This document shows, piece after piece, positions 21 to 61,749 of a DNA stretch of 64,000 nucleotides. The stretch lies in the NCBI GenBank assembly GCA_001661245.1, contig KV454013.1, forward strand, positions 207,005-271,004, given 5' to 3'. Below the pieces are notes generated by a model. It saw nothing but the letters and a program-made list of their open reading frames with translations, had not been told where the DNA came from and searched no databases. Numbering within the stretch: the first letter of the stretch is position 1; each line of letters opens with the position of its first letter. This stretch comes from Pachysolen tannophilus NRRL Y-2460 (taxonomy: Eukaryota). The position numbers were made by a program, and so were the translations under genes.

Positions 21-976
21 ATGAGTACCGATACTTCTAATAGTAATTCCTCGGTAACACATCAATTGGTGACTAATGATCCGAGTTTTGATTTACAAAA
101 GGCAACATTAGATGCAGCAATATATTATTCTCAAAATAAAAAAAAACTTCTTTAGAAAAAGTTGCAAAATTATTTGGTACAACTGTTAAACGTGTGAGAA
201 ATAGGGTTAAAAAATTGAATGAAAATCCAGAATTTAATCCTACAAATTTTATTGTCACTGCTCCATCAGTACCAAGACCACCACCACACAAATCTTTACA
301 AAGCCCGAATAAAATTAAAAAGGCAAACTCTTTAGGAGCAACAGGAACAGGATCTGGATCTGGAACTGGATCTGGAGGAGTAGGAACAGGAACTAGTGGT
401 AATAAGAATTCCTCACATCTGCACCATCATCACCTTCAACGACTGCTGCAACTGCAAGCACAGCAGCAACTGCTGCTGCTGCTGCTGCTGCAAAATGCCC
501 ACTACCAATTACAAGAGGCCTTGTCGAAACAACAGCAACAGGTGGCCCAATCTGTAGCGACTAATACCCTCGTTGTAGATCCAAATATACATCAGGCAAA
601 CACTACCGATCCACAATTGATTCAATTGAATACAATGGCACAACAACTGCCACCACAACCCCAGCCGCAACTGCTGCCGCTTTTGCATTACCAGCAATCA
701 CCACAACATAGATCTCAAAGACATTCACTTTCTCAACATTTGAATCCATATCAATCACAACAGATTGAACAACAGGTTCTGCTGCTGCAACTGCTGCTGC
801 AACAACAACTGCAACAACAACTGCAACCTCATCACCACAACTTACCTCATCATGGAACTATCATTGACTTTAACAATTTAGAAAACTTAAAACTGCTTGT
901 CAATAATGATAAATTAACAATCGAAGAAATTAAATACGTTATCAATTATTTGATAAATAAGACTTTATGCCAGTAG
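21..976 (+). CDS. Q/A/H-rich protein with N-terminal HTH-like segment; frame broken at A9 run 138-146; may extend 5' of window
   Basis: ATG21 frame stops at TAG 153-155. One extra A in the A-run joins it to the 194..976 frame (AAIYYSQNKK-TSLEKVAKLFGTTVKRVRNRVK). Low-complexity Q/CTG runs follow. Confidence 0.6.
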
Positions 977-1586: not shown

Positions 1587-4124
1587 CTAAAATTTTTTAT
1601 AATAATATTTCATTCTATCATAAAATTTATCTTGATCAATTTCAAGTTTAACACGAGTTTTCCCTTCCATACCTTCTTTAGATTCATTAGTAACATTTAC
1701 TTCATCTAATTCTAAATCTTTCGTAACTAATTCACTTAAACTATCAAATCCAAAATGATAATGTCTCATTATCGTTAAAAATAATGCATAACCTAATTTA
1801 TAATCTTGTAAAATCAAGAAAATATCAAAAAATTTTATCATTAAATTTAATGGTAAAATCGATAATAAGTTTATAAATGTTAAAGTTTCAAACTCAACTT
1901 GATACAAACTAATATCATCCTTTGAAACACTAAGATATTTCTTTATTGTAGAATTTGATAATACTTTATGTGCTGCAAATAAATCACTATTATCATGATT
2001 AGCAAAACCAATAGTTAAGTGATTAAATATTTTTAATAACACAAAAATTTCTTCATTTGAATATAACTCGGTCAAGATCAACTTGGAAGTTATAAATGGA
2101 TAAATTTGAATTTCTTCATCATTACAAATGGCATCAATTTTTAAGAAAACCATCATTTTTTTATAAAAATTAGAATTTTTATCTTTAAATTGTGGGTAAT
2201 GTATTTCTATTTGTTTAAAAATTTTTTCAATTTCTAATGAATTTTCCATTGAAATATTTTCAATATTTTGTTTAGATGATAATTCTTTAAATCTTGAAAT
2301 AATCAGTGCTAGATCAAATTTAGAATCTAACCTTTTAACTAGTTTAATCATCATTTTAAACTTGATATCATTAGGAATATCTGTGTTAAATAACATCATC
2401 CCACATTCATGTACATGTTTTTTCTTTATATTTTCTCTTAAAAATAAATCTTGAAATCTTGCCTTGTTCAAAGCACAAATTTCCAGATTACGTTTAACTA
2501 ATTCTTTAGATTTTAATTCAAATTCTGCTGCTTTAGCAAATACTTTAGAAATTTCTCGTTCATGTTTATTAACTTCTTTCAAATCTTTTGGTGGCAACCA
2601 TATAGGTCTTGTTGAACATAATCTTTGTAATTTTTCACCTGATAAAAATTTTGCATCATCTAAACCTTGAGTATTTGCTTGTTGAAATTGAAACATTGCA
2701 TGACTATTTGAATTTCTACGATCAAGTTCTTCTTGAAAATAATTTGTAGAACTTGATTCATAATAAGAACTAATTTCTCTTGCAGTTGGTGATAAATTTT
2801 GAAATGAAGGTTGTTTTTGTAATTTTGGAGAAAATGGAGATGAATTTCTAACATTTCCTCCTGAATTTGAAGAAGATGCTGGAATTGAAGGTGGTCTAGT
2901 AAAATAACTACCTGGTAAGGGAGAAGGTGGCATTGAAACTGAATTGCTATTTAACATTGAATTTATTAAATTTGGAGATTGACAAGTTTTTTCATTAGCG
3001 AAAAAATTTGCAGTTCCACCTACTGCCATAGGTACATTCCATACTATTGAATCATTTGGTATTTCATCATCTGAATCATAATCATCATAATTTTTTTCAA
3101 TATCTTTTAAAGTTAATCTTGAAGTTTGTCTTCTTAATCTAAATTTTTGAGTTGGTGTCAAAGTTACTTGACTACCACTTTGAACACTTTGAACTGATAA
3201 TAAAGATGAAGAAGGTGAAGGTGAAGCACGACGATTCAATCCTAATGAGTGATGTTTTCTATTATTACTTAATCTCAAATTAGGTACAGATGACATTTTC
3301 AAAGTTGGTGGTGCTTGTTGTTTAGTTGGTGTAGATAAATCATGTAATTGTAATTGTTCTTTTTTTTGCAAATGTTGTTGTTGTTGCAGCAGTTGTTGCA
3401 GCAGCTGTATTCTATTATTATTATTTTTATCATCATCGGTTATTGTTGCCAACAGTGGTAAGCTTGCGGTAGCTAAACTTGTTTTCCTAACATTAGAGAC
3501 ATTATTTGCAGGAGATGAAAAGGGAGAAGATGTTGAGTTACAACTTGTCATTGAACTGACTCTAGAATTTGGTTCTTCTCCATCTTCATCATCCTCATTA
3601 TGTGATGACAGTTCTTCAGAATTAGAAGATAATGATGAAGTTGTTGAAATTGGTCTATTATTTATAATATTACTTTGACTTTCATTTCCACTTCCATTTC
3701 CACTTCCGTTTACACTTCCATTAGCCTTTGCATTCTTCAAACTAATCAATACTGAATCACTAGGTCTTCGGGAAACGTTGATCCCCAATCCAACAGCGCT
3801 TTTACTAAAATTATTCCCATAAGGTCCAACTTGACCTAACCGCGGTTGTGAAGAAAAAGACAGCGATGGCGGCTGAACCGACATCGATCTTCTTGAAGAA
3901 TATTTCCCATAACTTTTAACTGCACTAGGCGAACCTCCTCGAACCAGATCTATCGAATTATGATGTTGTTGTTGTTGATGCTGATGATGATGATGATGAT
4001 GATGATCTAACTCTTCGGTAAACAAAACATCCGTAAAATCTTCTTCTTTCAAACTCTGAAGCGAAACCTGAGATATATTGAAATTATTCCCGGAATTCGA
4101 TGATGATGATGATGATGATGCCAT
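1587..4124 (-). CDS. SBE2: Sbe2/Sbe22-family Golgi protein
   Basis: 845 aa; TPTQKFRLRRQ, LSPTAREISSYYE and STRPIWLPPKD..E..KHE motifs. Confidence 0.8.
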   Translation of the reverse strand: MASSSSSSSNSGNNFNISQVSLQSLKEEDFTDVLFTEELDHHHHHHHQHQQQQHHNSIDLVRGGSPSAVKSYGKYSSRRSMSVQPPSLSFSSQPRLGQVGPYGNNFSKSAVGLGINVSRRPSDSVLISLKNAKANGSVNGSGNGSGNESQSNIINNRPISTTSSLSSNSEELSSHNEDDEDGEEPNSRVSSMTSCNSTSSPFSSPANNVSNVRKTSLATASLPLLATITDDDKNNNNRIQLLQQLLQQQQHLQKKEQLQLHDLSTPTKQQAPPTLKMSSVPNLRLSNNRKHHSLGLNRRASPSPSSSLLSVQSVQSGSQVTLTPTQKFRLRRQTSRLTLKDIEKNYDDYDSDDEIPNDSIVWNVPMAVGGTANFFANEKTCQSPNLINSMLNSNSVSMPPSPLPGSYFTRPPSIPASSSNSGGNVRNSSPFSPKLQKQPSFQNLSPTAREISSYYESSSTNYFQEELDRRNSNSHAMFQFQQANTQGLDDAKFLSGEKLQRLCSTRPIWLPPKDLKEVNKHEREISKVFAKAAEFELKSKELVKRNLEICALNKARFQDLFLRENIKKKHVHECGMMLFNTDIPNDIKFKMMIKLVKRLDSKFDLALIISRFKELSSKQNIENISMENSLEIEKIFKQIEIHYPQFKDKNSNFYKKMMVFLKIDAICNDEEIQIYPFITSKLILTELYSNEEIFVLLKIFNHLTIGFANHDNSDLFAAHKVLSNSTIKKYLSVSKDDISLYQVEFETLTFINLLSILPLNLMIKFFDIFLILQDYKLGYALFLTIMRHYHFGFDSLSELVTKDLELDEVNVTNESKEGMEGKTRVKLEIDQDKFYDRMKYYYKKF

Positions 4125-8608: not shown

Positions 8609-8765
8609 TTTATAGATAAATAATAGTATATATCCATTATCGAAAAATAAAATAAGTAGACTTGGTCTTTTTTTTTGAAGGTTACCAGTATCGTTGAATA
8701 TAAACCCTTGAATACAAAAGAAATGTAGCAAGCAAGCAAACAACCAAGCAAAAAAAAAAAAACCT

Positions 8766-8839
8766 TGATTTTGCCCAGGATCGAACTGGGGACGTTCTGC
8801 GTGTTAAGCAGATGCCATAACCAACTAGACCACAAAACC
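8766..8839 (-). tRNA. tRNA-Val(AAC), intronless
   Basis: Minus strand GGTTTTGTGGTCTAGTTGGTTATGGCATCTGCTTAACACGCAGAACGTCCCCAGTTCGATCCTGGGCAAAATCA; A and B boxes; oligo-T Pol III terminator follows. Confidence 0.98.
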
Positions 8840-9139
8840 AGTGTTTTCAGCAATGAAAAATCATAAGGTAACCTTTAGAGAGTATGTATGTGTTCACGTA
8901 TTAACTGTGAAAGATAAGTATATTAAATATTAGATTACCAAGAACCACCACATGTTTAAACACTCATGATAACTAAAAATAAAAAATAAAAAAAATTCCC
9001 CGGGAAGTGAAGTATATTTAAAAGCCATAGTTTACCAATGTATTAAGTATGCATTGGAAAGAAAAAACTATACAAGGACATTCATTGAATCGAAAATACA
9101 GAATATTGAAATGAACTAGTAGAGCTAAAGAAATAAGAA

Positions 9140-22846: not shown

Positions 22847-24565
22847 ATGGGGTTTATAAGTTTTGTGGAAAAATTGAAGGTTAAACCTTCAGAGACTGCA
22901 ACAATCAATATTATGACAAATCCTGATTTGTTACCTATGCCTGCAGAAAGACGTATATGGGGTTGGTTTGGGTTTCTTTTTTATTGGTTAATCAGTAAAT
23001 GTCTTATTTCTACTTGGACAAGTGCAAATTCTTTATTATCTTTAGGATTTAATGTTGGTGAAATTATGGGGATTATAATTATAAGTAATGTTATAGTTGT
23101 TGTTCTTTCTTTACTGAATGGTCAAATAGGTTCAGATTATTATATTGGTTATACAGTTGCTACTCGTATAATTTTTGGTATTCATGGTTCTTATTTTGGA
23201 GTGGCTATAAGAACTATTTTAAGTATTGTTTGGTTTGCTTCTCAATCATGGTTAGGTGGTTTATGTGTTTGTTGTGTTCTTTCTTCTTGGTCAAAAAGTT
23301 TTCTTTATATGGAAAATACTTTCCCAGATAGTGTTCATTTTACTTCTCAAGAATTAGTTGGATTTGTTATATTTCAACTTTTATGTTTACCTTTAATTTT
23401 AATTAAACCTGAAAAATTGAAACCACATATTGTTAGTTCTTCATTAGTAACTTTAGCTGCAATGCTTGGTATAATAATTGCTGCAACAAAGGCAAATGGA
23501 GGTACAGGTCCTTTAATGACTTCAAAAACTACTATTAGTGGATCTACTTATTCTTGGAATTGGGTTTATGGTATTGTAAGTCAATATGGTAGTATTGCTG
23601 CTGGTGTTACAAATATGGCCGATTATACAAGGTTTAGTGAAAAAAAATATTCTCCTTATCCTGGTACTATTATTAGTTGGTTCACTTTAGGTGTTGTAAT
23701 TCCATTAATGGGGTTAATAACTCTGAGTGCCATTGAAGGACGTTATGGTGTTACTTATTGGAAACCAAATGATATTATGAATTTATGGTTGGAAGATAAT
23801 TATACTCCAGCAGTTCGTGCAGGTGTTTTCTTTGCCTCCATGGCATTTGTAAGTTCTCAATTGGTATATAACGTCATGGGTAATGCTATTCCAGGTGGAA
23901 TGGATATGTCTGGTCTTTGTCCTCAATTTATCAATATTCGTAGAGGTGCTTATATTACTGCCTTACTTTCATGGGTTATTCAACCATGGGATTTCTATAA
24001 TACTTCATCAACTTTTGTCACTGTTATGAGTTCTTTTTCAGTCTTTATGACTCCATTGATTGCTTGTTGGATTTGTGATTATTTCATTATTAGAAAAAGA
24101 AAATTAAAATTATCAGATTTATACAGTTTAGAAGAAGGTGGAGAATTTTGGTATTGGAAAGGTCTTAATTTAAGAGGACTTTTAGCATGGGCTTGTTCTT
24201 CAGCACCAGGTATTGCTGGATTAGTTAACCAAGCAAATACAGATCTTCCAATATCAGAAGGAGCAAAACATTTTTATGATGGTAATTTATTCTTTGGTTT
24301 TGTAATTGCATTTTTCGTTTATTATGTTTCAAATTTGATATTCCCAATGAAAAAATTAGATGAACTTGATCAAGTAGATTATTTCAAAATATATACACCT
24401 GAACAAATTCAACAAAAGGGATTGATCAGTTACGAAGAATACAAAGCAGGCGTTCTCCCACAAGAAGATGATTCTGTTGAAAGTGGTTCTGCAAGTGGAA
24501 GTAAAGAAATTACTCAAATAGAGTACGAACTTACAGGTGATAAAACTGCTACTGTAGAAGTTTAA
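22847..24565 (+). CDS. NCS1 nucleobase/thiamine permease (Thi7/Nrt1-like)
   Basis: NPDLLP.P.ERR.WGW, GGMDMSGLCPQFINIRRGA, QPW.FYN.SSTF.TVMSSF; multiple TM helices. Confidence 0.9.
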   Translation: MGFISFVEKLKVKPSETATINIMTNPDLLPMPAERRIWGWFGFLFYWLISKCLISTWTSANSLLSLGFNVGEIMGIIIISNVIVVVLSLLNGQIGSDYYIGYTVATRIIFGIHGSYFGVAIRTILSIVWFASQSWLGGLCVCCVLSSWSKSFLYMENTFPDSVHFTSQELVGFVIFQLLCLPLILIKPEKLKPHIVSSSLVTLAAMLGIIIAATKANGGTGPLMTSKTTISGSTYSWNWVYGIVSQYGSIAAGVTNMADYTRFSEKKYSPYPGTIISWFTLGVVIPLMGLITLSAIEGRYGVTYWKPNDIMNLWLEDNYTPAVRAGVFFASMAFVSSQLVYNVMGNAIPGGMDMSGLCPQFINIRRGAYITALLSWVIQPWDFYNTSSTFVTVMSSFSVFMTPLIACWICDYFIIRKRKLKLSDLYSLEEGGEFWYWKGLNLRGLLAWACSSAPGIAGLVNQANTDLPISEGAKHFYDGNLFFGFVIAFFVYYVSNLIFPMKKLDELDQVDYFKIYTPEQIQQKGLISYEEYKAGVLPQEDDSVESGSASGSKEITQIEYELTGDKTATVEV

Positions 24566-24888: not shown

Positions 24889-27500
24889 ATGGATTATTCC
24901 ATAGAAGGTATGCTATTATTTGTTTGATATGTATTTTGTTTTGTGGATGATTACTAACGGTTCATTTTTATAGGTATACAATCAATTGACATAAACAATG
25001 ACAGTAGTAAATATATTGATATAACTGATCAATTTTTTGATGTGACAAAAGGTATGTTGTCTGTACTTGAATAATAGTTGAGTTAGGGATTGGTTTTGCT
25101 TTATGGTAAAGAAATTGTGTATACTAACAGTATCAATATGGGATGGGCGGGTTTGTTTTTTTTTGTTTCATAGACATTAAGCATGGTGAAATAGTTAAGG
25201 CTAAATCATTTTCTCTTTTCCAAGGCACACATGCTTTGGAAATGATGAATAAAAGGTTAGATACAGGATTGGTGGAATTGTCTAAAGAAGAGAGGGAATT
25301 TGATGTTACCGCTGGGAGAAACTTTGATGAAGTCTTGGCTATAATGAATGATCTTTTGAAATATCTTATGTCATGGTTAAATAATTCGTCATTGTCTCGT
25401 ACGATTTTATCATGTAGATACGTTGAAGTTTTACTAGTCAATTACTGTACTGGGAATAAAAGCTTGCTGTCATGTCGTTTTGGGGCCAACGTTGAATTGA
25501 AAGATGATGATGATGAGGAAAGTTTATTGATCCATAAAGTGTTAAGATCTTTTATCTTGGGCTGTTTAGAATTTGTTAAATTTGTTTTATTTTTAGGCCA
25601 GCAAGGTGTCTTATATGAAGAAGAAGATATTAATACAACGAGTATGGGGCTAGATATTTTATCAAAAATTTCAAAACAAGATATTATAAATGAATTAGAA
25701 AAATCGATTAATTGGTTACAAAAATTTTGCAATCATATGAATAAAAATTATATGATAGATTTATTGTTAATGATAAATAATTTGATAAAACCAAATTTAT
25801 TGACAATAACCATAACTTTTGATCAATCATCAAGTCCTAAACCAAAAGAATTATTATTTTTACAGGAATCATTAAAGATTGCCAAATCATTAAAATCAAA
25901 TAAAGAATTTTTCAGTAAATTACCACAAGTTCCCAAAGGTTGTCTTTCACAAGGTGTACAAAGAAGATTAGACAATGGTGTGCCATTAACACCTTTAAAC
26001 ATGGATCCATTTGATTCCGTATATGATTCTTTTATAAACATGATTCAAGATATTCTTGTAATATTTGAATTAATTAATATTCAAAATATCAATCATATTA
26101 ATCTTTTCATCATGTGTTTTATGAATAAACGTGAAGATCCAATCCACATTATTGCAAGAGCTTTTTTACAATTGTTTTATATTAGAGAAGATAGATCCAT
26201 AATGGGTGATCCAAAAACTAGAATAGATTCATTATTATTAAAAGATTTAATATCATTAACTTGTTGTGATTCCAAAATTTTCCAAGAATATGAAAATTAT
26301 GAAAAAAAAGGATCAAAGATTAATAATCATAATAGAATAGAATATATTGACAAATTTCTTGAATTATTAGCAAATTTAGAAAATAATTATTATTCAAATT
26401 TTTTAACAATTTCACAAAATCCATGCAGACAACGTCAACATTTCAATAGATCGATATTAACTTGGGATACTTTACAAGTTCAATCAGAAATGTTTGAGCA
26501 AGAATTATTTCAGAAATATAATATAAATGATTTTTATAAGGTTGATGGTAATAATAATGATCATCATCAAGAAGAAATTCAATCGATGCCTATATCATCA
26601 TGGATTTATTATCATAAATTGAAGAGTATGTTAGAAGTGGTATTAAGAGGTGTGGAGTTAGAAATTTATAAAAAATGGGAACTTTATTCAATTTTTTGGT
26701 ATTCATCATATTTGTATGAGATTTTAATTGAACATCTTCATAGAATTCAACATGCAAATTCATATAAAAAAAATTTGATTTTAAATATGCCCAAGAAGAT
26801 TAAGAAATTAAAATCTGGTGAAAAAAAGCAACAATTAAAAGAAATATATAAAATTAAATCAAAACAAATTTTACCTCAATTAATTGAAATTGAAACAAGA
26901 TTAGAACAAGATTTTACAATTTTCACAATTTTGAAAAATTTATCAGATTGTGAAAAATATCTTTTTTCAATTTTAGATGATTTAAAATTATTAGAATTAC
27001 CCAAGTTAAATATGGTACCAGAATCATTAAGTTATGGATTAAAGATGAAACCTTTCCAATCTGTTGGTGTACCAGAATTTCCAACTTTTACAAAATGGCA
27101 AATGGTAAAGAAATCGTTACAAACAAATGTGGATACTAAAGAGAAAAAATTACACACTTTAACTTGTATTAAAAAATTATGTGATTTTATTAAAACTCAA
27201 ATTTCAGATACAATTACTAAATTGAACAATAACAATAACAATAACAATAAAGATAAAAATGAAAATGGAAAATCACAATTTACAGATTTCGTTCAAAAAG
27301 AATTAACACTTTGGCATAACCAATTGTTAAGAAGCTGTATTGGAATATCTTTAACATGTTCGCTTTTATCAAAACAATTAGTTGACCCCAATTTCCAGGA
27401 TATTAATCAAATACATCATAAATATACAGTATTATTGCAAAGAGATGGGTATCATAGATACTTTCCCTGTATCAAAGTTGTGGAAAACCCCATGAAATAA
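24889..27500 (+). CDS. MAK10: NatC auxiliary subunit; exons 24889-24907, 24974-25051, 25174-27500
   Basis: Two introns (GTATGC and GTATGT donors, TACTAAC, TAG) splice in frame; FSLFQGTHALEMMNKRLDTG, QNPCRQRQ, MKPFQSVGVP. Confidence 0.92.
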
Positions 27501-30614: not shown

Positions 30615-32444
30615 TCAGTAATAATTCCAGGGCCCATTTTTTTTTTGTGCTTGATACCTTCCTTCCAATAATTCGTTAACATCTGAAGAACTTACAACTA
30701 CACCCTTTTCTGAACATTTCAGCTTTTGTTTTAATTCTTTACATAATCCATCAATGTCCAATTCAGAATATTTTGGATGTGAAGTAATTCTTTCCCATAT
30801 TGCTGAACACTTCATCAAATCGGCATCAGTTGCAGGAACCATCTCCTTTTCATTTTTGCCATCCTCAGCATCTTTATCCTCATCGCCAGTGGCTTCTGGA
30901 ATACTATCAAGAGCACCTTCATTCTCGTTATACTTTTCTTCTGATTTCATTACATCATTTTTTCTAACTACTGGATTCAAATACTTGACGTATTTTACAT
31001 TCTCATTGAGATGTCCTTGATCATCAACATTGCCTCCAAACATTCCTAATGGATCATACAATGATTCCTCGGTAACCAATCCTTCCAACTTACTACCGTT
31101 TCTATCATTATCGTTATTTGTGACATCGTTTATCCAATTTTGATCATTATAATCAAATACCAAAGATGGATCAAAAGATGTAGAGTTTAAGAAAGAATAT
31201 GCATCCAACTTATCATTACCTAAATCTTGCAAGTAGTTGTAATCATTACCAGCAGTCAATGTACTGAATGGAGATAACGATGTACTTGTTTCATTAAATG
31301 CAGGTGAGTTCTCCAGCTTATTTAGTATCGGTGATTGTGAGTGCGATTGCGATTGCGATTGAGAGGGCAGTTGCAGATTCAGTTGTTGCAGTGGCTCCAG
31401 CACCGATTCCAGCACTTGCTGTGGATTAATATTAGAATTAGAATTTGAGCGCTCAGCAACTGGAGATGAGACTGAATGCTCAGACTTGACAAAGTTGAAA
31501 GGTGAAGAAGCATTGGAAAGTGATTTAGGAACAGGACAACTTTTGCTTCCACAAACTTCTGACAAGTTCAAACAAAAATCAGAAACTTTTTCATCAAATT
31601 GGTTTTCAACATCACCCGATTGTTGTGATAATTCTTCTTTTTCATTCAATATCGATGATCTTCTAATATTTGAATTAAACATTGGTAATTTTGAAGGGTT
31701 AGTTTCATTATTAGAAGTATCCAATACATCTGGCGATGTTGAAGCTGTTGTTGGATTTGACGAAGAACTATCATTTGTTAAACCGGGATTATTGTTCTTT
31801 ACAGAGGAATTATCCGTTCCATTATTCTTGGGACCTACTGAGGAAGAAGTTAAACTACTTCCCGATTTTGTTGAATGATTTTTACTCCATGGAAATTCGA
31901 ACGTAAAGTTTTGATCAATATGTGAACCTGCTGTTGTACCAGTGGCACCTGATGTTGTTCCAATGGCACCTGATACACCCGAAGTACTTGATGCCGTTGA
32001 ATTTGGGGTAGAAAGATTCAATGAATCATCTTTTGAGTAAGAAGATACCGAAGATAGGCTACTTACACTATGCTTATTGGCACCAGAACCACCACCATTC
32101 AACGTCCCTGTGGATGAAAGCAAACTATCTATATCCTTTTTCCCTCTAAACTTGGTCAACTCTGTCATTAAGGTCTCAACTTGCATTCTTAAAAATTCCG
32201 ACTCATTATGTAAAGCCAATTTTTCATTCTCCAAAGTCCCAACCAAATCCTCCAACTCCTTCATCTTACGCTCTTTCCTCTCACGGAAAGCTCTTTGAGC
32301 TGCTCTATTCTGCAGAGTTCTCTTATTCTTTGGCTCTGAATTTAAAGGTTTACGTCCCGGCCTATTCAATTCCTGTCTCTTAGCAGCGATATCTGCGGGA
32401 CTGCTAACCTCAGAATTCAACCTCTTATTTATTATATCTGACAT
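30615..32444 (-). CDS. YAP1: AP-1-like oxidative stress bZIP factor
   Basis: bZIP QNRAAQRAFRERKE, FTFEFPW, n-CRD FCLNLSEVCG..SCPVPK, c-CRD CSAIWERI..IDGLC..CSEKG. Confidence 0.97.
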   Translation of the reverse strand: MSDIINKRLNSEVSSPADIAAKRQELNRPGRKPLNSEPKNKRTLQNRAAQRAFRERKERKMKELEDLVGTLENEKLALHNESEFLRMQVETLMTELTKFRGKKDIDSLLSSTGTLNGGGSGANKHSVSSLSSVSSYSKDDSLNLSTPNSTASSTSGVSGAIGTTSGATGTTAGSHIDQNFTFEFPWSKNHSTKSGSSLTSSSVGPKNNGTDNSSVKNNNPGLTNDSSSSNPTTASTSPDVLDTSNNETNPSKLPMFNSNIRRSSILNEKEELSQQSGDVENQFDEKVSDFCLNLSEVCGSKSCPVPKSLSNASSPFNFVKSEHSVSSPVAERSNSNSNINPQQVLESVLEPLQQLNLQLPSQSQSQSHSQSPILNKLENSPAFNETSTSLSPFSTLTAGNDYNYLQDLGNDKLDAYSFLNSTSFDPSLVFDYNDQNWINDVTNNDNDRNGSKLEGLVTEESLYDPLGMFGGNVDDQGHLNENVKYVKYLNPVVRKNDVMKSEEKYNENEGALDSIPEATGDEDKDAEDGKNEKEMVPATDADLMKCSAIWERITSHPKYSELDIDGLCKELKQKLKCSEKGVVVSSSDVNELLEGRYQAQKKNGPWNYY

Positions 32445-38895: not shown

Positions 38896-40395
38896 ATGTT
38901 TTATGTGAAAGTCTTGTTGGTGTTTTCGCTTCTATTGAGGAGTTGTCAGTCTCAGTCCTATCAAGCTGTTCTGGAACTGCAAAATGGTGTTGATTCTTTT
39001 TTAGAAGAGAGCAAGTCATTATTCGATGTTGGTACAAATAACGATGGTAAGAGAACAATCGTATATGAAGACGCTAGTAAACATAAGAAGCAAGTGCTGA
39101 TAATTAGCGAAGCTGATAAGTTGGAATTAAAGAAAAAGGGAATAAAATTTCATGATATTACGAACCAGGTGATAAAGAGCAATGAAAATAGAAATTATTA
39201 CTTAAATTCTGAAATATATTTACCAAAATATAATTATCCAAATAAGACCAATTTCCATAGCGAGAAAGTAACGGAATTGATTAATGAGATTGATACCCAG
39301 TTGATGTTTGATAAGTTGTCTAATTTTTCTTCTTTTTATACTAGATATTATAAATCCGAAACAGGGTACGAATCTACACTTTGGTTATACAAGGAAATAC
39401 ATTCATTAATTTCTGATAAGATAGCTCCAAGAGTTGAGGTGAAATTGTTTGATCATAGAGACTGGAAACAGAACTCTATAATTGTGACTTTGTACGGAGA
39501 TAATGCAGTTAAAAATCCTTCTGGAGAAGGATATTCAGATAAAGGTCCAATAGTTGTATTAGGCTGTCATTTGGATTCCATCAATTTGCTTTTCCCTAGT
39601 CTATTGCTGGCACCTGGAGCAGATGATGATGGTAGTGGTGTTACCACAGTATTGGAAACATTAAGAATTATTTTGGCTTCTGCAGGAAGAAAATTTACTT
39701 TCAAAAATACCATTGAATTTCATTTTTACTCTGCGGAGGAAGGTGGATTGTTAGGATCATTGGATATTTTCCATGAGTATAGGAAAACTCAAAATTTAAC
39801 GGTTGTAGCAATGCTACAACAAGATATGACTGGTTACATTCAAAGATCATTAGAAAATGGTCGTCTGGAACATATAGGAATTATGGATGATCATACTTCA
39901 CAAACATTGACAAATTTTGTGAAAGAATTAATTAAAACTTATTGTTTAATCCCATATCATGATCTGGAATGTGGATATGCATGTTCCGATCATTCTTCTG
40001 CTTTGCAAAATGGATACCCAAGTGCTTTTGTATCTGAAGCTGAATTGAAATATGATAACCCTAATATTCATTCTGTTAGTGATACAGTGGATAAATTGTC
40101 ATTTGAACATATGGCAGAATATGTAAAACTTGGTCTTGGATACGTCTACGAATTGGGTATGTGGGAGGATATTAAAGAAATTGAAGGCGAAAAAGAGTTG
40201 GTTGCATTTCTGAAATGGAACTTTATGATAAAGAGATTTTTCTTTAGTCATTATGAAAGGTTTCTAGTTGCAGTATTGTTAAGTTTGGGTGTTATTGTCT
40301 TTATAACCTTGGATTTAGTTAGGAATTTTAATTTTAGGAGACTGCTAAGGAATTTTAGATTACGTCGGAAATATAGGTTTTTAAGTCAGAGTTAG
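38896..40395 (+). CDS. M28 leucine aminopeptidase with signal peptide and C-terminal TM
   Basis: GCHLDS, APGADDDGSG, EFHFYSAEEGGLLGS, QQDMTG, CGYACSDH. Confidence 0.93.
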   Translation: MFYVKVLLVFSLLLRSCQSQSYQAVLELQNGVDSFLEESKSLFDVGTNNDGKRTIVYEDASKHKKQVLIISEADKLELKKKGIKFHDITNQVIKSNENRNYYLNSEIYLPKYNYPNKTNFHSEKVTELINEIDTQLMFDKLSNFSSFYTRYYKSETGYESTLWLYKEIHSLISDKIAPRVEVKLFDHRDWKQNSIIVTLYGDNAVKNPSGEGYSDKGPIVVLGCHLDSINLLFPSLLLAPGADDDGSGVTTVLETLRIILASAGRKFTFKNTIEFHFYSAEEGGLLGSLDIFHEYRKTQNLTVVAMLQQDMTGYIQRSLENGRLEHIGIMDDHTSQTLTNFVKELIKTYCLIPYHDLECGYACSDHSSALQNGYPSAFVSEAELKYDNPNIHSVSDTVDKLSFEHMAEYVKLGLGYVYELGMWEDIKEIEGEKELVAFLKWNFMIKRFFFSHYERFLVAVLLSLGVIVFITLDLVRNFNFRRLLRNFRLRRKYRFLSQS

Positions 40396-41787: not shown

Positions 41788-44268
41788 ATGCCATTAGCAG
41801 TGATAGATCAAGAAGATTTGAGATATGAAAAATTATTGTTGCAAAATCCTCATAATTTGAAAACATGGTTGAAATATTATGAGTATAAATCAAGTAATGC
41901 ATTATCATCTTATCATGATTTGGTATTTATTCTATCAAGATCGTTGAGTTATTTGAAGAGATCATATAAGTTATGGATGTTATATTTAAACTTGAAAGTT
42001 TCTTATCAAATTGAAACTGTTCATGATGTGGTGAAAACTTTTGAAGTTGCAGTTGAATTTTTGAATAAATACCCAAATTTTTGGTTATTGTATTTAAATT
42101 ATTTGATTGACAACAGCGTGGATATAAAGCTGACAAGGTTAAAATTTGACACTTGCTTGAGGATATTACCAATTGCTCAGCATTTTAGAATATGGCCAAA
42201 GTTTTTGAAATTTGGTGATTTATATGGTAATATACTTGGATTCAATATATATAAAAGATACTATATTTTTAAGAAACTGATGGGTGATTTAGAGAAGGAA
42301 AACAGTGTGAAATATGAAGATATTCTAGATAAGTTGATAGAATTTGCAACTAAAGATAATCTAGTTGATTTATGTGGGGTTTTCAATGAATTTATTAGAT
42401 CTCCTTCAATATTGTCATCATTGACGAATAAAACTGAATTAGATTTGTATTTAGATTATTTAAACAGTTTGATTAAACATAATGATAATGATTATAATCA
42501 AATTGAAAATCTTGTGACAAATTCAATTTCTAAATTTCCAGATCAAAAATTTAAATTTATTTTAAAATTAACAACTTTTTATATTAATACGGGAAATTAT
42601 GGTAAAGTTAGAGATATATTTGAAGCTAATTTGTCAAATTGCCTTACAGTTAAAGATTTTGTTTCAATTTATGATGCATATCTAGAATTTGAAGAGGCAA
42701 ATATTACTAAATTAATGGGGGAAATAGATTCCAAATCTAATGATGAAGATCCTGAATTAAATATTGAATTAGAGTTAAGATTAAAAGTTTTTGAAAATTT
42801 AATGAATAAGAGAGAATTTTTATTAAATGATGTATTTTTAAGACAAAATCCAAATAATGTACAGACATGGTTAGATAGAATAAAACTTTATGATGAATCT
42901 AATCAAGTAATTGAGATTTTAGAAACTTATGTAAAGGCTATTACCACTATTGATCCAAGAAAAGTAAATTCAAACTTACATATGATTTGGTTAGGATATA
43001 TAAAAATTTATGAATCAAATGGTGATATTGTTACTGCTAGATCAATTTTCCCAAATGCTGTAAAAGTACCTTTTAAAAATGTTACGGATTTGGTGGAAAT
43101 TTGGTTAGAATGGTGCAATTTTGAAATACGAGCAAATGAAGAAGAAGGAATTGATAATGCGATTACATTATTAGAGAATTGTTTAAATATAAAAGGAGAT
43201 ATACAACAAATACAAAAAATTGATTTCAATGATGAATCAATTCCAGCACAATCACGATTACTTAAATCTATTAAATTATGGTCATTTTATTTAGATTTAG
43301 TTGAAACTACTGGAGATATTTCAAAGACAAGTGGTCTTTATGAAAGGATGATTGATTTAAAAATAGCAAGACCAATAAATATTGTGAATTATTGTAATTT
43401 TTTAGAAGAGAATAAATTATTTGAAAAAAGTTTACAAATTTATGAAAGAAGTTTAAAAATTTTTAAATTTCCTATATTATTTGAAATATATAATATTTAT
43501 TTGGCCAAATTTTTAAAATTTCAAAAAATTATCAATATTTCCAATGAAAGAGTTAGAGATGTATTTGATGATCTATTGGAAAAATGCCCTAATTCTGATA
43601 TGGTTAAACCTATAACTATATTATATGCTAATTTTGAAGAGGAAAATAAATTACTTTCTAGAATGTTTAAAATTTATAATACTGGAATTAATAAATTAGA
43701 ATCCCCTTCAGAGAAATTAAAATTATACAAGATTTATTTATCAAAAGCATCACAATATTTACAAATTACTTCATTAAGAACAATTTATGAATCTATAACT
43801 AATGATGAATCATTACCAATAAATGAAGATTTAATGTCTATTGTTGAAAATTTTGTCAATTTAGAGATAAAACTTGATGATTTGAATAGAGCAAGACTGA
43901 TTTTAAAACATTTTTACGATATTTGTTCATCAATTAAATCTGATGTATCCATCAGGTTAAGACAAAATTTAAAAGAATTTTGGAAATTAATAGAATTGAA
44001 AAATGGTAGTGAAGAAACGTTTAAAGATATGTTGAGATATGAAAGATTATGTGATTTGAAATATGGTAGAGAAAATGAAGAGGAAAACTCTAAAGTCTTG
44101 AAAGGATTTGTCAAATCAAGTCAAGCACCAATAATTGAAGATAAGACTAACAATGACGAAAAAGATGTTAACCCAGATGCTATTGATCTAAACATGGATG
44201 ACGATGAAGATGACGACGACGACGATAACGATGAAGATGAAAGCTCACATGTTCATGACAATGCCTAA
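41788..44268 (+). CDS. SYF1: NTC splicing factor Syf1 (HAT repeats)
   Basis: DLRYE..LLQNP, RSYKLW, LRQNPNNVQTW, SIKLWSFYLDLVE, NPDAIDL. Confidence 0.92.
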   Translation: MPLAVIDQEDLRYEKLLLQNPHNLKTWLKYYEYKSSNALSSYHDLVFILSRSLSYLKRSYKLWMLYLNLKVSYQIETVHDVVKTFEVAVEFLNKYPNFWLLYLNYLIDNSVDIKLTRLKFDTCLRILPIAQHFRIWPKFLKFGDLYGNILGFNIYKRYYIFKKLMGDLEKENSVKYEDILDKLIEFATKDNLVDLCGVFNEFIRSPSILSSLTNKTELDLYLDYLNSLIKHNDNDYNQIENLVTNSISKFPDQKFKFILKLTTFYINTGNYGKVRDIFEANLSNCLTVKDFVSIYDAYLEFEEANITKLMGEIDSKSNDEDPELNIELELRLKVFENLMNKREFLLNDVFLRQNPNNVQTWLDRIKLYDESNQVIEILETYVKAITTIDPRKVNSNLHMIWLGYIKIYESNGDIVTARSIFPNAVKVPFKNVTDLVEIWLEWCNFEIRANEEEGIDNAITLLENCLNIKGDIQQIQKIDFNDESIPAQSRLLKSIKLWSFYLDLVETTGDISKTSGLYERMIDLKIARPINIVNYCNFLEENKLFEKSLQIYERSLKIFKFPILFEIYNIYLAKFLKFQKIINISNERVRDVFDDLLEKCPNSDMVKPITILYANFEEENKLLSRMFKIYNTGINKLESPSEKLKLYKIYLSKASQYLQITSLRTIYESITNDESLPINEDLMSIVENFVNLEIKLDDLNRARLILKHFYDICSSIKSDVSIRLRQNLKEFWKLIELKNGSEETFKDMLRYERLCDLKYGRENEEENSKVLKGFVKSSQAPIIEDKTNNDEKDVNPDAIDLNMDDDEDDDDDDNDEDESSHVHDNA

Positions 44269-55721: not shown

Positions 55722-57383
55722 TTAATGCAGAGTTTGCAATGAACTAATAATATTTTGTAATCCACTGACACTATCTTTATCGTCAAATTCTCCACAACCT
55801 TCTTCGACAATCCACTTTTTGCTATTATAATTGTGATAATCATTTTTATCACTTATGACTTCACATGCCCATCCTGTAACCAATAACCCTGGTGGTCTTG
55901 ATCCACATGTTTCATATGCTTCATAAATATTTTGTAAATTGGATCTAATGATTCTTTGATCTGGACAAGAAGCTCTTTCTATTATACAACAGGGTAATTT
56001 GGGATCCCAATTTCTTTCCAGAATAAGAACATCAGTTAACTGGTTTAGTCTATGTAAACTCATTAAGAATACACATGTCTGTGTCTTATTATAAAATGGA
56101 AGATCTGGTAAAACACCTTTTCTCCCGGTTCCAGTTAAAATCAAAACTTGATCACTAACCTCTCTGTGAGTTATTGGTATTTGAGCCATAACTGGTGCTG
56201 CTAATGCTGAAGTTAACCCTGGTAATACAACAGGTTCAAACCCATTTTCCTTGAAAAAATTATATTCTTCACCACCTCTACCAAATATATACGGATCACC
56301 TTGTTTAAGTCTAATAACTTTTTTCCCCTGATTTAAAGCAGCTAAACCTTTATCCAAGAGTTCCTTCTGTGCCATTTCAGCATTTCCTGGGAATTTTCTT
56401 GCAATAAAAGTTTCAGTTGTACGAGGAATAAGTTCCAAAACTTGTTCAGGGACAAGCTTATCGGAAAGCACCAAGTCCGCTGAATATATCTCCGATAATG
56501 CTCCCAAAGTCAATAAAGATACAGCACCAGGTCCTGAGCCAACAAGTGATATTGTACCTTTTTTCAATGATACTTGCAGTGATGGTTGTTCATTATCATC
56601 TTGATATGCACAGGATAAATCTTCAATTGATAAACTTGCCAATTTTTTCAAAGGATAATACTCAACAATTTGCAGTAACCATCTAGCTCTTTGATATTTC
56701 TTATCCTTTTCTGTCATTTCAAATTCATGAATTAATTTATTTAATTTAAAAGTTTGTATAGAATCTTCTTCATTATCACCAAGTATTTCTGCTTCTTGTT
56801 CATTTTTCAAATTATCAAGATATCCATTATCTTCTTTTTGAATTTTTTCTCTTAATTCTCCAACTTTATTACAAATTTCGTCTATATTTTGTGGTAATGC
56901 ATTTACTAATTCTCTTTTAATCTTTGATGCTAATTTACAACCTTTACCAGAAGTTGTAATACCAAGTTGAAAATCTCCTTTATTATATGTAGATAATAAA
57001 GTAAAAGTACAAAACTCAGGATGATCAGCTATATTTATAGGTATTCTCAATTTTTGACATTTTTGAAAAATATTTTTTTTAAAATTATAATCTTTAAAAG
57101 TTAATGTAACAAAAACTTTATCAACTATATGATCAACTTCTTGTCTCCCCAAAGTAATCAAATCTTTTTCTCCAAAATCTCTAGAAACCCAACTAACTCT
57201 CCCATTATCAATCTGTTCTTGCAAATTCAGTGGAAATTTTTCATCTATTTTTTTCGAAGATACTAATACAGGTCTTGCACCAGATTCCAAGATGGAGTTA
57301 ATCCTGAATGCAGACAACACCGAAACCCCAACAACAAGATGAACTTCTCCTTTACAACAAAGAGAAGCCAACAAATTGGTCAT
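55722..57383 (-). CDS. MET1: Uroporphyrinogen-III C-methyltransferase
   Basis: LVGSGPG, RLKQGDPYIFGRGGEE, ERASCPDQR. Confidence 0.96.
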   Translation of the reverse strand: MTNLLASLCCKGEVHLVVGVSVLSAFRINSILESGARPVLVSSKKIDEKFPLNLQEQIDNGRVSWVSRDFGEKDLITLGRQEVDHIVDKVFVTLTFKDYNFKKNIFQKCQKLRIPINIADHPEFCTFTLLSTYNKGDFQLGITTSGKGCKLASKIKRELVNALPQNIDEICNKVGELREKIQKEDNGYLDNLKNEQEAEILGDNEEDSIQTFKLNKLIHEFEMTEKDKKYQRARWLLQIVEYYPLKKLASLSIEDLSCAYQDDNEQPSLQVSLKKGTISLVGSGPGAVSLLTLGALSEIYSADLVLSDKLVPEQVLELIPRTTETFIARKFPGNAEMAQKELLDKGLAALNQGKKVIRLKQGDPYIFGRGGEEYNFFKENGFEPVVLPGLTSALAAPVMAQIPITHREVSDQVLILTGTGRKGVLPDLPFYNKTQTCVFLMSLHRLNQLTDVLILERNWDPKLPCCIIERASCPDQRIIRSNLQNIYEAYETCGSRPPGLLVTGWACEVISDKNDYHNYNSKKWIVEEGCGEFDDKDSVSGLQNIISSLQTLH

Positions 57384-61490: not shown

Positions 61491-61749
61491 ATGTCTGGTC
61501 GTCCACAAAGATCAGAGAAGAAATCTGCATTTGAATCATTCAAAGAAACTCCGGCTTATCCAGTCTTATTAAACTTGACTTTATTTGCTGTATGTATAAT
61601 AACGTAGTAGTTTTATATTTATTATAGCTACGAATGAGATTAAGTACTAACTTTATAAAAAAAAAAAAAAAAAAATTTTTTTATTTTTTTAGGCTGGTGT
61701 TGTATTTATTCAATCATCGCTGATGGATATGCTTTCTCCACAATTATAA
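61491..61749 (+). CDS. TOM6: TOM complex subunit Tom6; exons 61491-61589 and 61693-61749
   Basis: Intron 61590-61692 (GTATGT/TACTAAC/TAG); FKETPAY...NLTLFAAGVVFIQSSxMDMLSPQL; Puf3 site TGTACATA 61793-61800. Confidence 0.92.

Follow-up and report, generated by a model that had tools for sequence, protein, structure and literature searches.

A CAG tRNA of alanine type and the reading of nuclear CUG codons in a genome matching Pachysolen tannophilus

CTG codons of the window and their homologous columns

What does a yeast insert at CUG when its CTG codons stand where related proteins have alanine? The question is raised by a Yap1/Pap1-like gene in the window, by which we mean the whole stretch of 64,000 nucleotides that was analysed. 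The window, a stretch of yeast DNA rich in AT (GC 0.14-0.34 per 2 kb), has 36 ORFs of at least 100 aa, and in-frame CTGs make up 82 of the 14,022 codons in the 34 of its ORFs that were counted. A preliminary description of this DNA had proposed that CUG is read as alanine, and the codons on which it drew (at 32313, 30720, 43897, 23114, 23723 and 61720, and one in Met1) are all in-frame CTGs exactly where it had placed them. The sites considered here are the following.

30615..32444, minus strand: Yap1/Pap1-like bZIP transcription factor ORF, 609 aa with 9 CTG codons; Pfam bZIP_1 and PAP1; PDB 7aw7, 1gd2 and 1sse
32313..32315, minus strand: CTG, Yap1 residue 44 in the basic region that binds DNA; Ala nearly invariant in this column
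30720..30722, minus strand: CTG, Yap1 residue 575 in the cysteine-rich domain at the C-terminus; Ala nearly invariant in this column
31314..31412, minus strand: seven clustered CTGs at Yap1 residues 345-377, in a linker rich in Gln and Ser
43897..43899, plus strand: CTG, Syf1 residue 704 (ORF 41788-44268)
23723..23725, plus strand: CTG, residue 293 of an NCS1 (thiamine-type) permease (ORF 22847-24565), Ala column
23114..23116, plus strand: CTG, residue 90 of the same permease, mostly-Leu column
56673..56675, minus strand: CTG, Met1 residue 237 (ORF 55722-57383), conserved Ser column
61720..61722, plus strand: CTG, Tom6 exon 2 (exons inferred at 61491-61589 and 61693-61749)

Homologous columns were read with a query carrying X at each CTG. 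Alanine is found at Yap1 residue 44 in 133 of 142 aligned homologs and at residue 575 in 141 of 146 (149 searched in each case), and residue 575 is alanine in all three PDB homologs found, which bears out the proposal that the CTGs in KRT[CTG]QNR and K[CTG]KCSE take the place of alanine. Under the standard code, with CUG as leucine and the alanine-aligned sites as chance substitutions, both of these near-invariant residues would become leucine. The PAP1 domain scores 70.9 when CTG is read as alanine, 67.7 when it is read as serine and 66.4 when it is read as leucine. Three contig sets from sequencing runs contained nothing that matched the Yap1 stretch, which speaks neither for nor against the reading.

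Two further sites that had been put forward as alanine positions also stand: Syf1 residue 704 is alanine in three of the four PDB alignments shown (10 matches) and leucine in the fourth, Cwf3, and permease residue 293 is alanine in 75 of 89 homologs. Permease residue 90, cited in the same support, does not, since its column (87 homologs) is mostly leucine (Leu 45, Gly 13, Ala 10) and the nearest homolog has leucine; four of the five supporting sites thus hold. The two sites that had been called weak were correctly described, as the Tom6 site is leucine in both PDB sequences found and Met1 residue 237 is serine in 111 and alanine in 4 of 119 homologs. Tom6 and permease residue 90 align in favor of leucine. 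The Met1 column favors another reading, in which CUG stands for serine (table 12), the code of CUG-Ser1 as well as CUG-Ser2 yeasts, and the alanine-aligned sites are Ala-to-Ser substitutions; we infer instead a Ser-to-Ala substitution at this residue. The other Met1 CTGs lie in variable columns (three) or are unaligned (one). Because they were hand-picked, the sites of the preliminary description overstate the alanine signal.

Tom6 itself is apparently a two-exon gene, with a GTATGT donor at 61590 and a TAG acceptor at 61690-61692, and falls below the length of the ORF list.

Unselected alignments, domain profiles and public protein records

Midasin, with 28 CTGs and 119 homologs, provided columns that had not been chosen in advance; the 20 sites at which 20 or more homologs aligned were kept, and the other 8 of the 28 were dropped. 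On average, the CTG columns hold 14% Ala, 10% Gln, 9.5% Lys, 9% each of Glu, Val and Pro, 7% Ser and 5.6% Leu. As controls in the same protein, GCN codons align to 57% Ala (199 sites), CTA/CTC/CTT to 60% Leu (117 sites) and serine codons to 44% Ser (354 sites), so that both leucine and serine are far rarer at CTG than at their own codons. Only one of the four conserved CTG columns of midasin is alanine. Among all eight CTG columns in which one residue reaches at least 60%, four of which are the preliminary description's own picks, alanine is that residue in four and Ser, Val, Gln and Pro in one each. Leucine is found in none of the eight, compared to 66 of 75 columns for CTA/CTC/CTT in the midasin controls; the five serine codons there give serine in 90 of 111.

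An unselected Pfam sample was drawn from 20 stretches of 10 kb over eight contigs. It comprised 300 CTGs in 81 ORFs, 56 of them within a matched domain, in 48 fragments; 10 fragments had no match and one matched under alanine alone, which left 37 scored in three codes. Alanine scored above leucine in 30 of the 37 (+41.8 bits; sign test, p = 2e-4), and serine also scored above leucine in 30. Alanine and serine were level, which counts in favor of the reading with serine: the summed difference, alanine minus serine, was -0.9 bits, with alanine higher in 11 fragments, serine higher in 24 and 2 ties, and among differences of at least 1 bit alanine led in 5 and serine in 2. Whole proteins of the window were scored in the same three codes (18 queries, 17 domains with a CTG inside). 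Alanine exceeded leucine in 14 of the 17, and the difference from serine, +8.5 bits and 9 to 6 by sign, is not decisive.

Judged from alignments alone, leucine is excluded but alanine and serine are not separated, and alanine is the plurality residue at most. The ortholog comparison that the preliminary description had recommended gives alanine a plurality at most: leucine was rejected by the Pfam fragments, and alanine came first in midasin and tied with serine in the profiles. The lesson for method is that alignment-based inference of a code is weak where the reassigned codon sits in variable positions. Since that is where most CTGs of this genome lie, the tRNA and peptides are needed.

The public records point to the species. 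Over the 3,190 residues compared, and with CTG set aside, the genome's midasin is the same as record P0001, which bears the name Pachysolen tannophilus, and the next match is at 59%. P0001 carries alanine at 22 of 22 midasin CTGs, the database copy of Yap1 (P0121) at 9 of 9 and that of Met1 at 5 of 5. For two of three ORFs tested, Syf1 and Nro1, the public collection contains the table-26 translation and lacks the leucine and serine versions; for the third, a peptidase ORF (38896-40395), none of the three translations was found by exact look-up of the collection, probably because of a different gene model. Table 26 is thus already applied in public records. We rejected alanine at CTG in databases as proof of decoding, because it follows the table that the annotators chose and is not independent.

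Two of these records depart from the window's ORFs. P0121 (626 aa) follows the Yap1 ORF to about residue 586 and then runs to its end in a different frame, as with a predicted short intron, and several Yap1 homolog matches extend in the unspliced frame to about residue 595 (window 30615-30700, the 3' end); the public model may be wrong at its 3' end. The permease copy P0391 (367 aa) spans only residues 206-572 of the 572-aa ORF (window 22847-24565), homologs align from the start, and the public model looks truncated.

The CAG tRNA and the published code

A pattern search of the genome gave 11 matches, of which one is a tRNA: a single gene with a CAG anticodon, located beyond the window (G000:C6:217831-217902, minus strand). 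No second copy was found by a DNA search of the genome. The gene is 72 nt long, folds as a cloverleaf and scores 57.6 bits against the Rfam tRNA model. It begins with G1GGC and has G3:U70, A73 and G37, and its variable loop is 4 nt, without a long variable arm. Among the tRNA genes fetched for comparison, the alanine tRNAs of this genome resemble it most. What alanyl-tRNA synthetase recognizes is G3:U70, whatever the anticodon, and the leucine and serine synthetases require a long variable arm. On these marks, the CAG tRNA is likely charged with alanine and nuclear CUG is likely read as alanine, while the missing long arm should exclude the leucine and serine synthetases. The tRNA-CAG with G3:U70 that the preliminary description had asked for is therefore present, with A73 and a short variable loop in addition. 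PMC4937558 likewise gives alanine identity as G3:U70 plus A73 and not the anticodon. Since alanine identity is independent of the anticodon, a duplicated alanine tRNA can acquire a new one.

In the scans made here, neither the leucine nor the serine reading finds a tRNA of its own. The Leu-type tRNAs found have the anticodons UAA (four), CAA (two), AAG (one) and UAG (one), and the 10 Ser-type genes found have UGA (three), GCU (three), AGA (three) and CGA (one). Three pattern scans and an Rfam family search, which an atypical or unassembled gene could escape, turned up no CAG tRNA of Leu or Ser type, and the four matches of a scan with looser criteria for a long-armed CAG tRNA included no tRNA. 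Of 1003 candidates, 63 were scored in the Rfam search, which did not pick up the CAG gene, and 50 of these 63 places were read directly, so that this inventory is incomplete. For leucine it can be said that G37 and A73 of the CAG tRNA are common to Leu tRNAs; for serine, the sole CAG tRNA lacks the long arm. The only tRNA of the window is a tRNA-Val(AAC) at 8765-8840 (minus strand).

The gene order places this tRNA in a known clade. An ORF with the motif VLPHPPLS starts 858 bp from it, and the 'vlphppls' gene belongs to the tA(CAG) synteny block according to the legend of Supplementary Fig. 5d in PMC5951914; the likeness to Alaninales in having tA(CAG) beside this gene rests on comparing the motif gene with that legend. 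The same legend states two types of tRNA-Ala(AGC), and two types are found in this genome. The CUG-Ala clade is the order Alaninales, family Pachysolenaceae, with Pachysolen, Nakazawaea and Peterozyma (PMC5951914; PMC11182611), and its diagnosis in PMC11182611 includes protein family OG0016373 and rDNA phylogeny. The assignment to the Pachysolen/Nakazawaea/Peterozyma clade is upheld by this synteny marker together with the midasin match. CTG is depleted from conserved positions here as in Alaninales, and no difference from that order was found.

The tRNA-Ala(CAG) of Pachysolen tannophilus described by Muhlhausen et al. 2016 (PMC4937558) is alike in G1GGC, G3:U70, A73, G37 and the absence of a long variable loop, and no difference from the P. 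tannophilus code was found, the tRNAs being compared by their described features. On origin there is a small discrepancy, as PMC4937558 derives the CAG tRNA from tRNA-Ala(UGC) and the gene found here is slightly nearer to Ala(AGC), with 54 of 75 identical columns compared to 51 for Ala(UGC), a weak difference. The CUG-Ser1 (Serinales) and CUG-Ser2 (Ascoideales) codes are alike in affecting the same codon through an anticodon-shifted tRNA and a synthetase that ignores the anticodon. In contrast, they use long-armed Ser-type tRNAs, of which none with CAG was found in this genome, and a Leu(CAG) gene, which Ser2 species have often retained as well, was also not found here.

Published peptides bear directly on the choice. 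In P. tannophilus, alanine was found at 97.2% of 907 CUG positions supported by peptides (PMC4937558), and the mass spectrometry in the supplement of PMC5951914 gives alanine at 243 of 256 CUG sites, leucine at 3 and serine at 0. The genome-wide CTG row in Supplementary Data 2 of PMC5951914 (554 sites) holds Ala 30%, Leu 15.8%, Pro 10%, Gln 7%, Lys 6% and Ser 4.3%. Leucine is second in this row, a point in its favor; with the profile, column and tRNA results set against it, we regard the standard code as next to impossible for this genome. Serine, for all its level Pfam score, is rare in the row and absent from the peptides, which refute it provided that the species match is right, and we consider it very improbable.

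A mixed reading was also weighed, in which CUG is mainly alanine with meaningful leucine leakage, either by wobble of tRNA-Leu(UAG) or because the CAG tRNA, with its G37, is mischarged, and sites such as Tom6 keep some leucine. A tRNA-Leu(UAG) is present, G37 is in place, the Leu-leaning sites Tom6 and permease residue 90 exist, and three of the 256 peptide sites are leucine. Against this, CUG was found to be as unambiguous as AUG (PMC4937558), and Leu-aligned sites are expected from mutation alone, leucine codons being one base from CTG, just as Pro- and Gln-aligned ones are. We consider such leakage unlikely. The one tRNA-Leu(UAG) gene found (G000:C8:422116-422249) has a 52-nt intron, and its product must avoid reading CUG if decoding is to stay unambiguous.

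Taken together, what settles the question is the tRNA along with the published peptides, and we hold with great confidence that nuclear CUG is read as alanine (NCBI table 26) by a single-copy CAG tRNA on an alanine tRNA body. The reading proposed in the preliminary description is supported by the alanine identity of this tRNA and by a midasin identical to the P. tannophilus record, and its remark that the code is not new is correct, since the CUG-Ala code of this species was published in 2016. Three sense-codon reassignments are known from the nuclei of yeasts; this is one of them, and it is now used to define an order. In a sample of 120 ORFs, 104 have at least one CTG (383 of 62,666 codons), and standard translation would thus place false leucine in most proteins; in Yap1, the DNA-binding domain and the redox domain would both be affected. 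The nuclear genes of this genome need table 26 for translation, which also matters for expressing them in other hosts.

Origin of the present CTG sites, glutamine tracts and mitochondrial CUN codons

If CUG is alanine, its poor alignment to alanine calls for an account. CTG lies two or more changes from every GCN codon, and CAG, CCG, GTG, ATG, CGG and leucine codons lie one change away. The residues of these one-change codons make up 40% of the published CTG row (PMC5951914) and 36% of the midasin CTG columns, compared to 11% of the GCN columns. We propose that CUG was first depleted and then refilled, and that most present CTGs would not be old alanine codons but one-base changes from CAG, CCG, GTG or leucine codons at tolerant sites, which would be why CTG aligns poorly to alanine. 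The invariant alanine sites, including both in Yap1, would have had to reach CUG either by way of Val or Pro or by a double change.

CTG codons also cluster with each other and with glutamine codons. Two examples in the window are the following.

779..823, plus strand: CTG run in a Gln-rich tract (ORF 635-976)
3387..3404, minus strand: CTG pairs alternating with Gln codons in a Sbe2-like ORF (1587-4124)

Within-gene shuffles among alanine positions (500 rounds) served as the null. CTG stands beside at least two Gln codons 28 times compared to 12.9 expected, and beside another CTG 55 times compared to 18.2 expected, and in both cases none of the 500 shuffles reached the observed count. With the window excluded, the counts were 22 compared to 10.8 for CTG-Gln and 44 compared to 14.7 for CTG-CTG. 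At the level of genes the CTG-Gln effect was smaller (14 genes compared to 8.6 expected), and 6 of the 500 shuffles reached it. Depletion and refilling of CUG, together with this clustering, would explain the sites that count against alanine without ambiguous decoding.

With CUG as alanine, a single base now separates this residue from Gln (CAG to CUG) and from Pro (CCG to CUG), and Gln tracts could for this reason turn into Gln/Ala tracts. The wider idea is that the code change reshapes proteins, poly-Gln passing into Gln/Ala and poly-Ala tracts and CUG entering variable sites along paths that are not open to yeasts with the standard code; we judge the chances for and against it to be about equal, and do not claim the conversion of Gln tracts as unpublished. 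Eight consecutive CTGs come right after a Gln run in L119:3972-6443 (minus strand, residues 156-163). That ORF has an exonuclease/endonuclease/phosphatase domain, and the run is predicted to be poly-Ala read by a single-copy tRNA.

The mitochondrial contig (G000:C10) was also inspected at L089:5584-6480 and L089:2082-3239, where CTT aligns to leucine and not to threonine. The only CUN-reading mitochondrial tRNA among 24 found has an AAG anticodon, is 73 nt long and has no long variable arm (L010:1791-1863; G000:C10, about 25987-26059). A leucine tRNA without a long variable arm is unusual, and a literature search on this mitochondrial AAG tRNA found nothing. The Cox1 CTT codons are matched by leucine in 6 of 6 cases against both top PDB matches, and the cytochrome b sites read Ile/Ile, Leu/Leu and Leu/Cys. 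PMC9154068 lists Pachysolen tannophilus under NCBI code 3, where CUN is threonine; from these matches, the listing looks wrong for CUN in its mitochondria.
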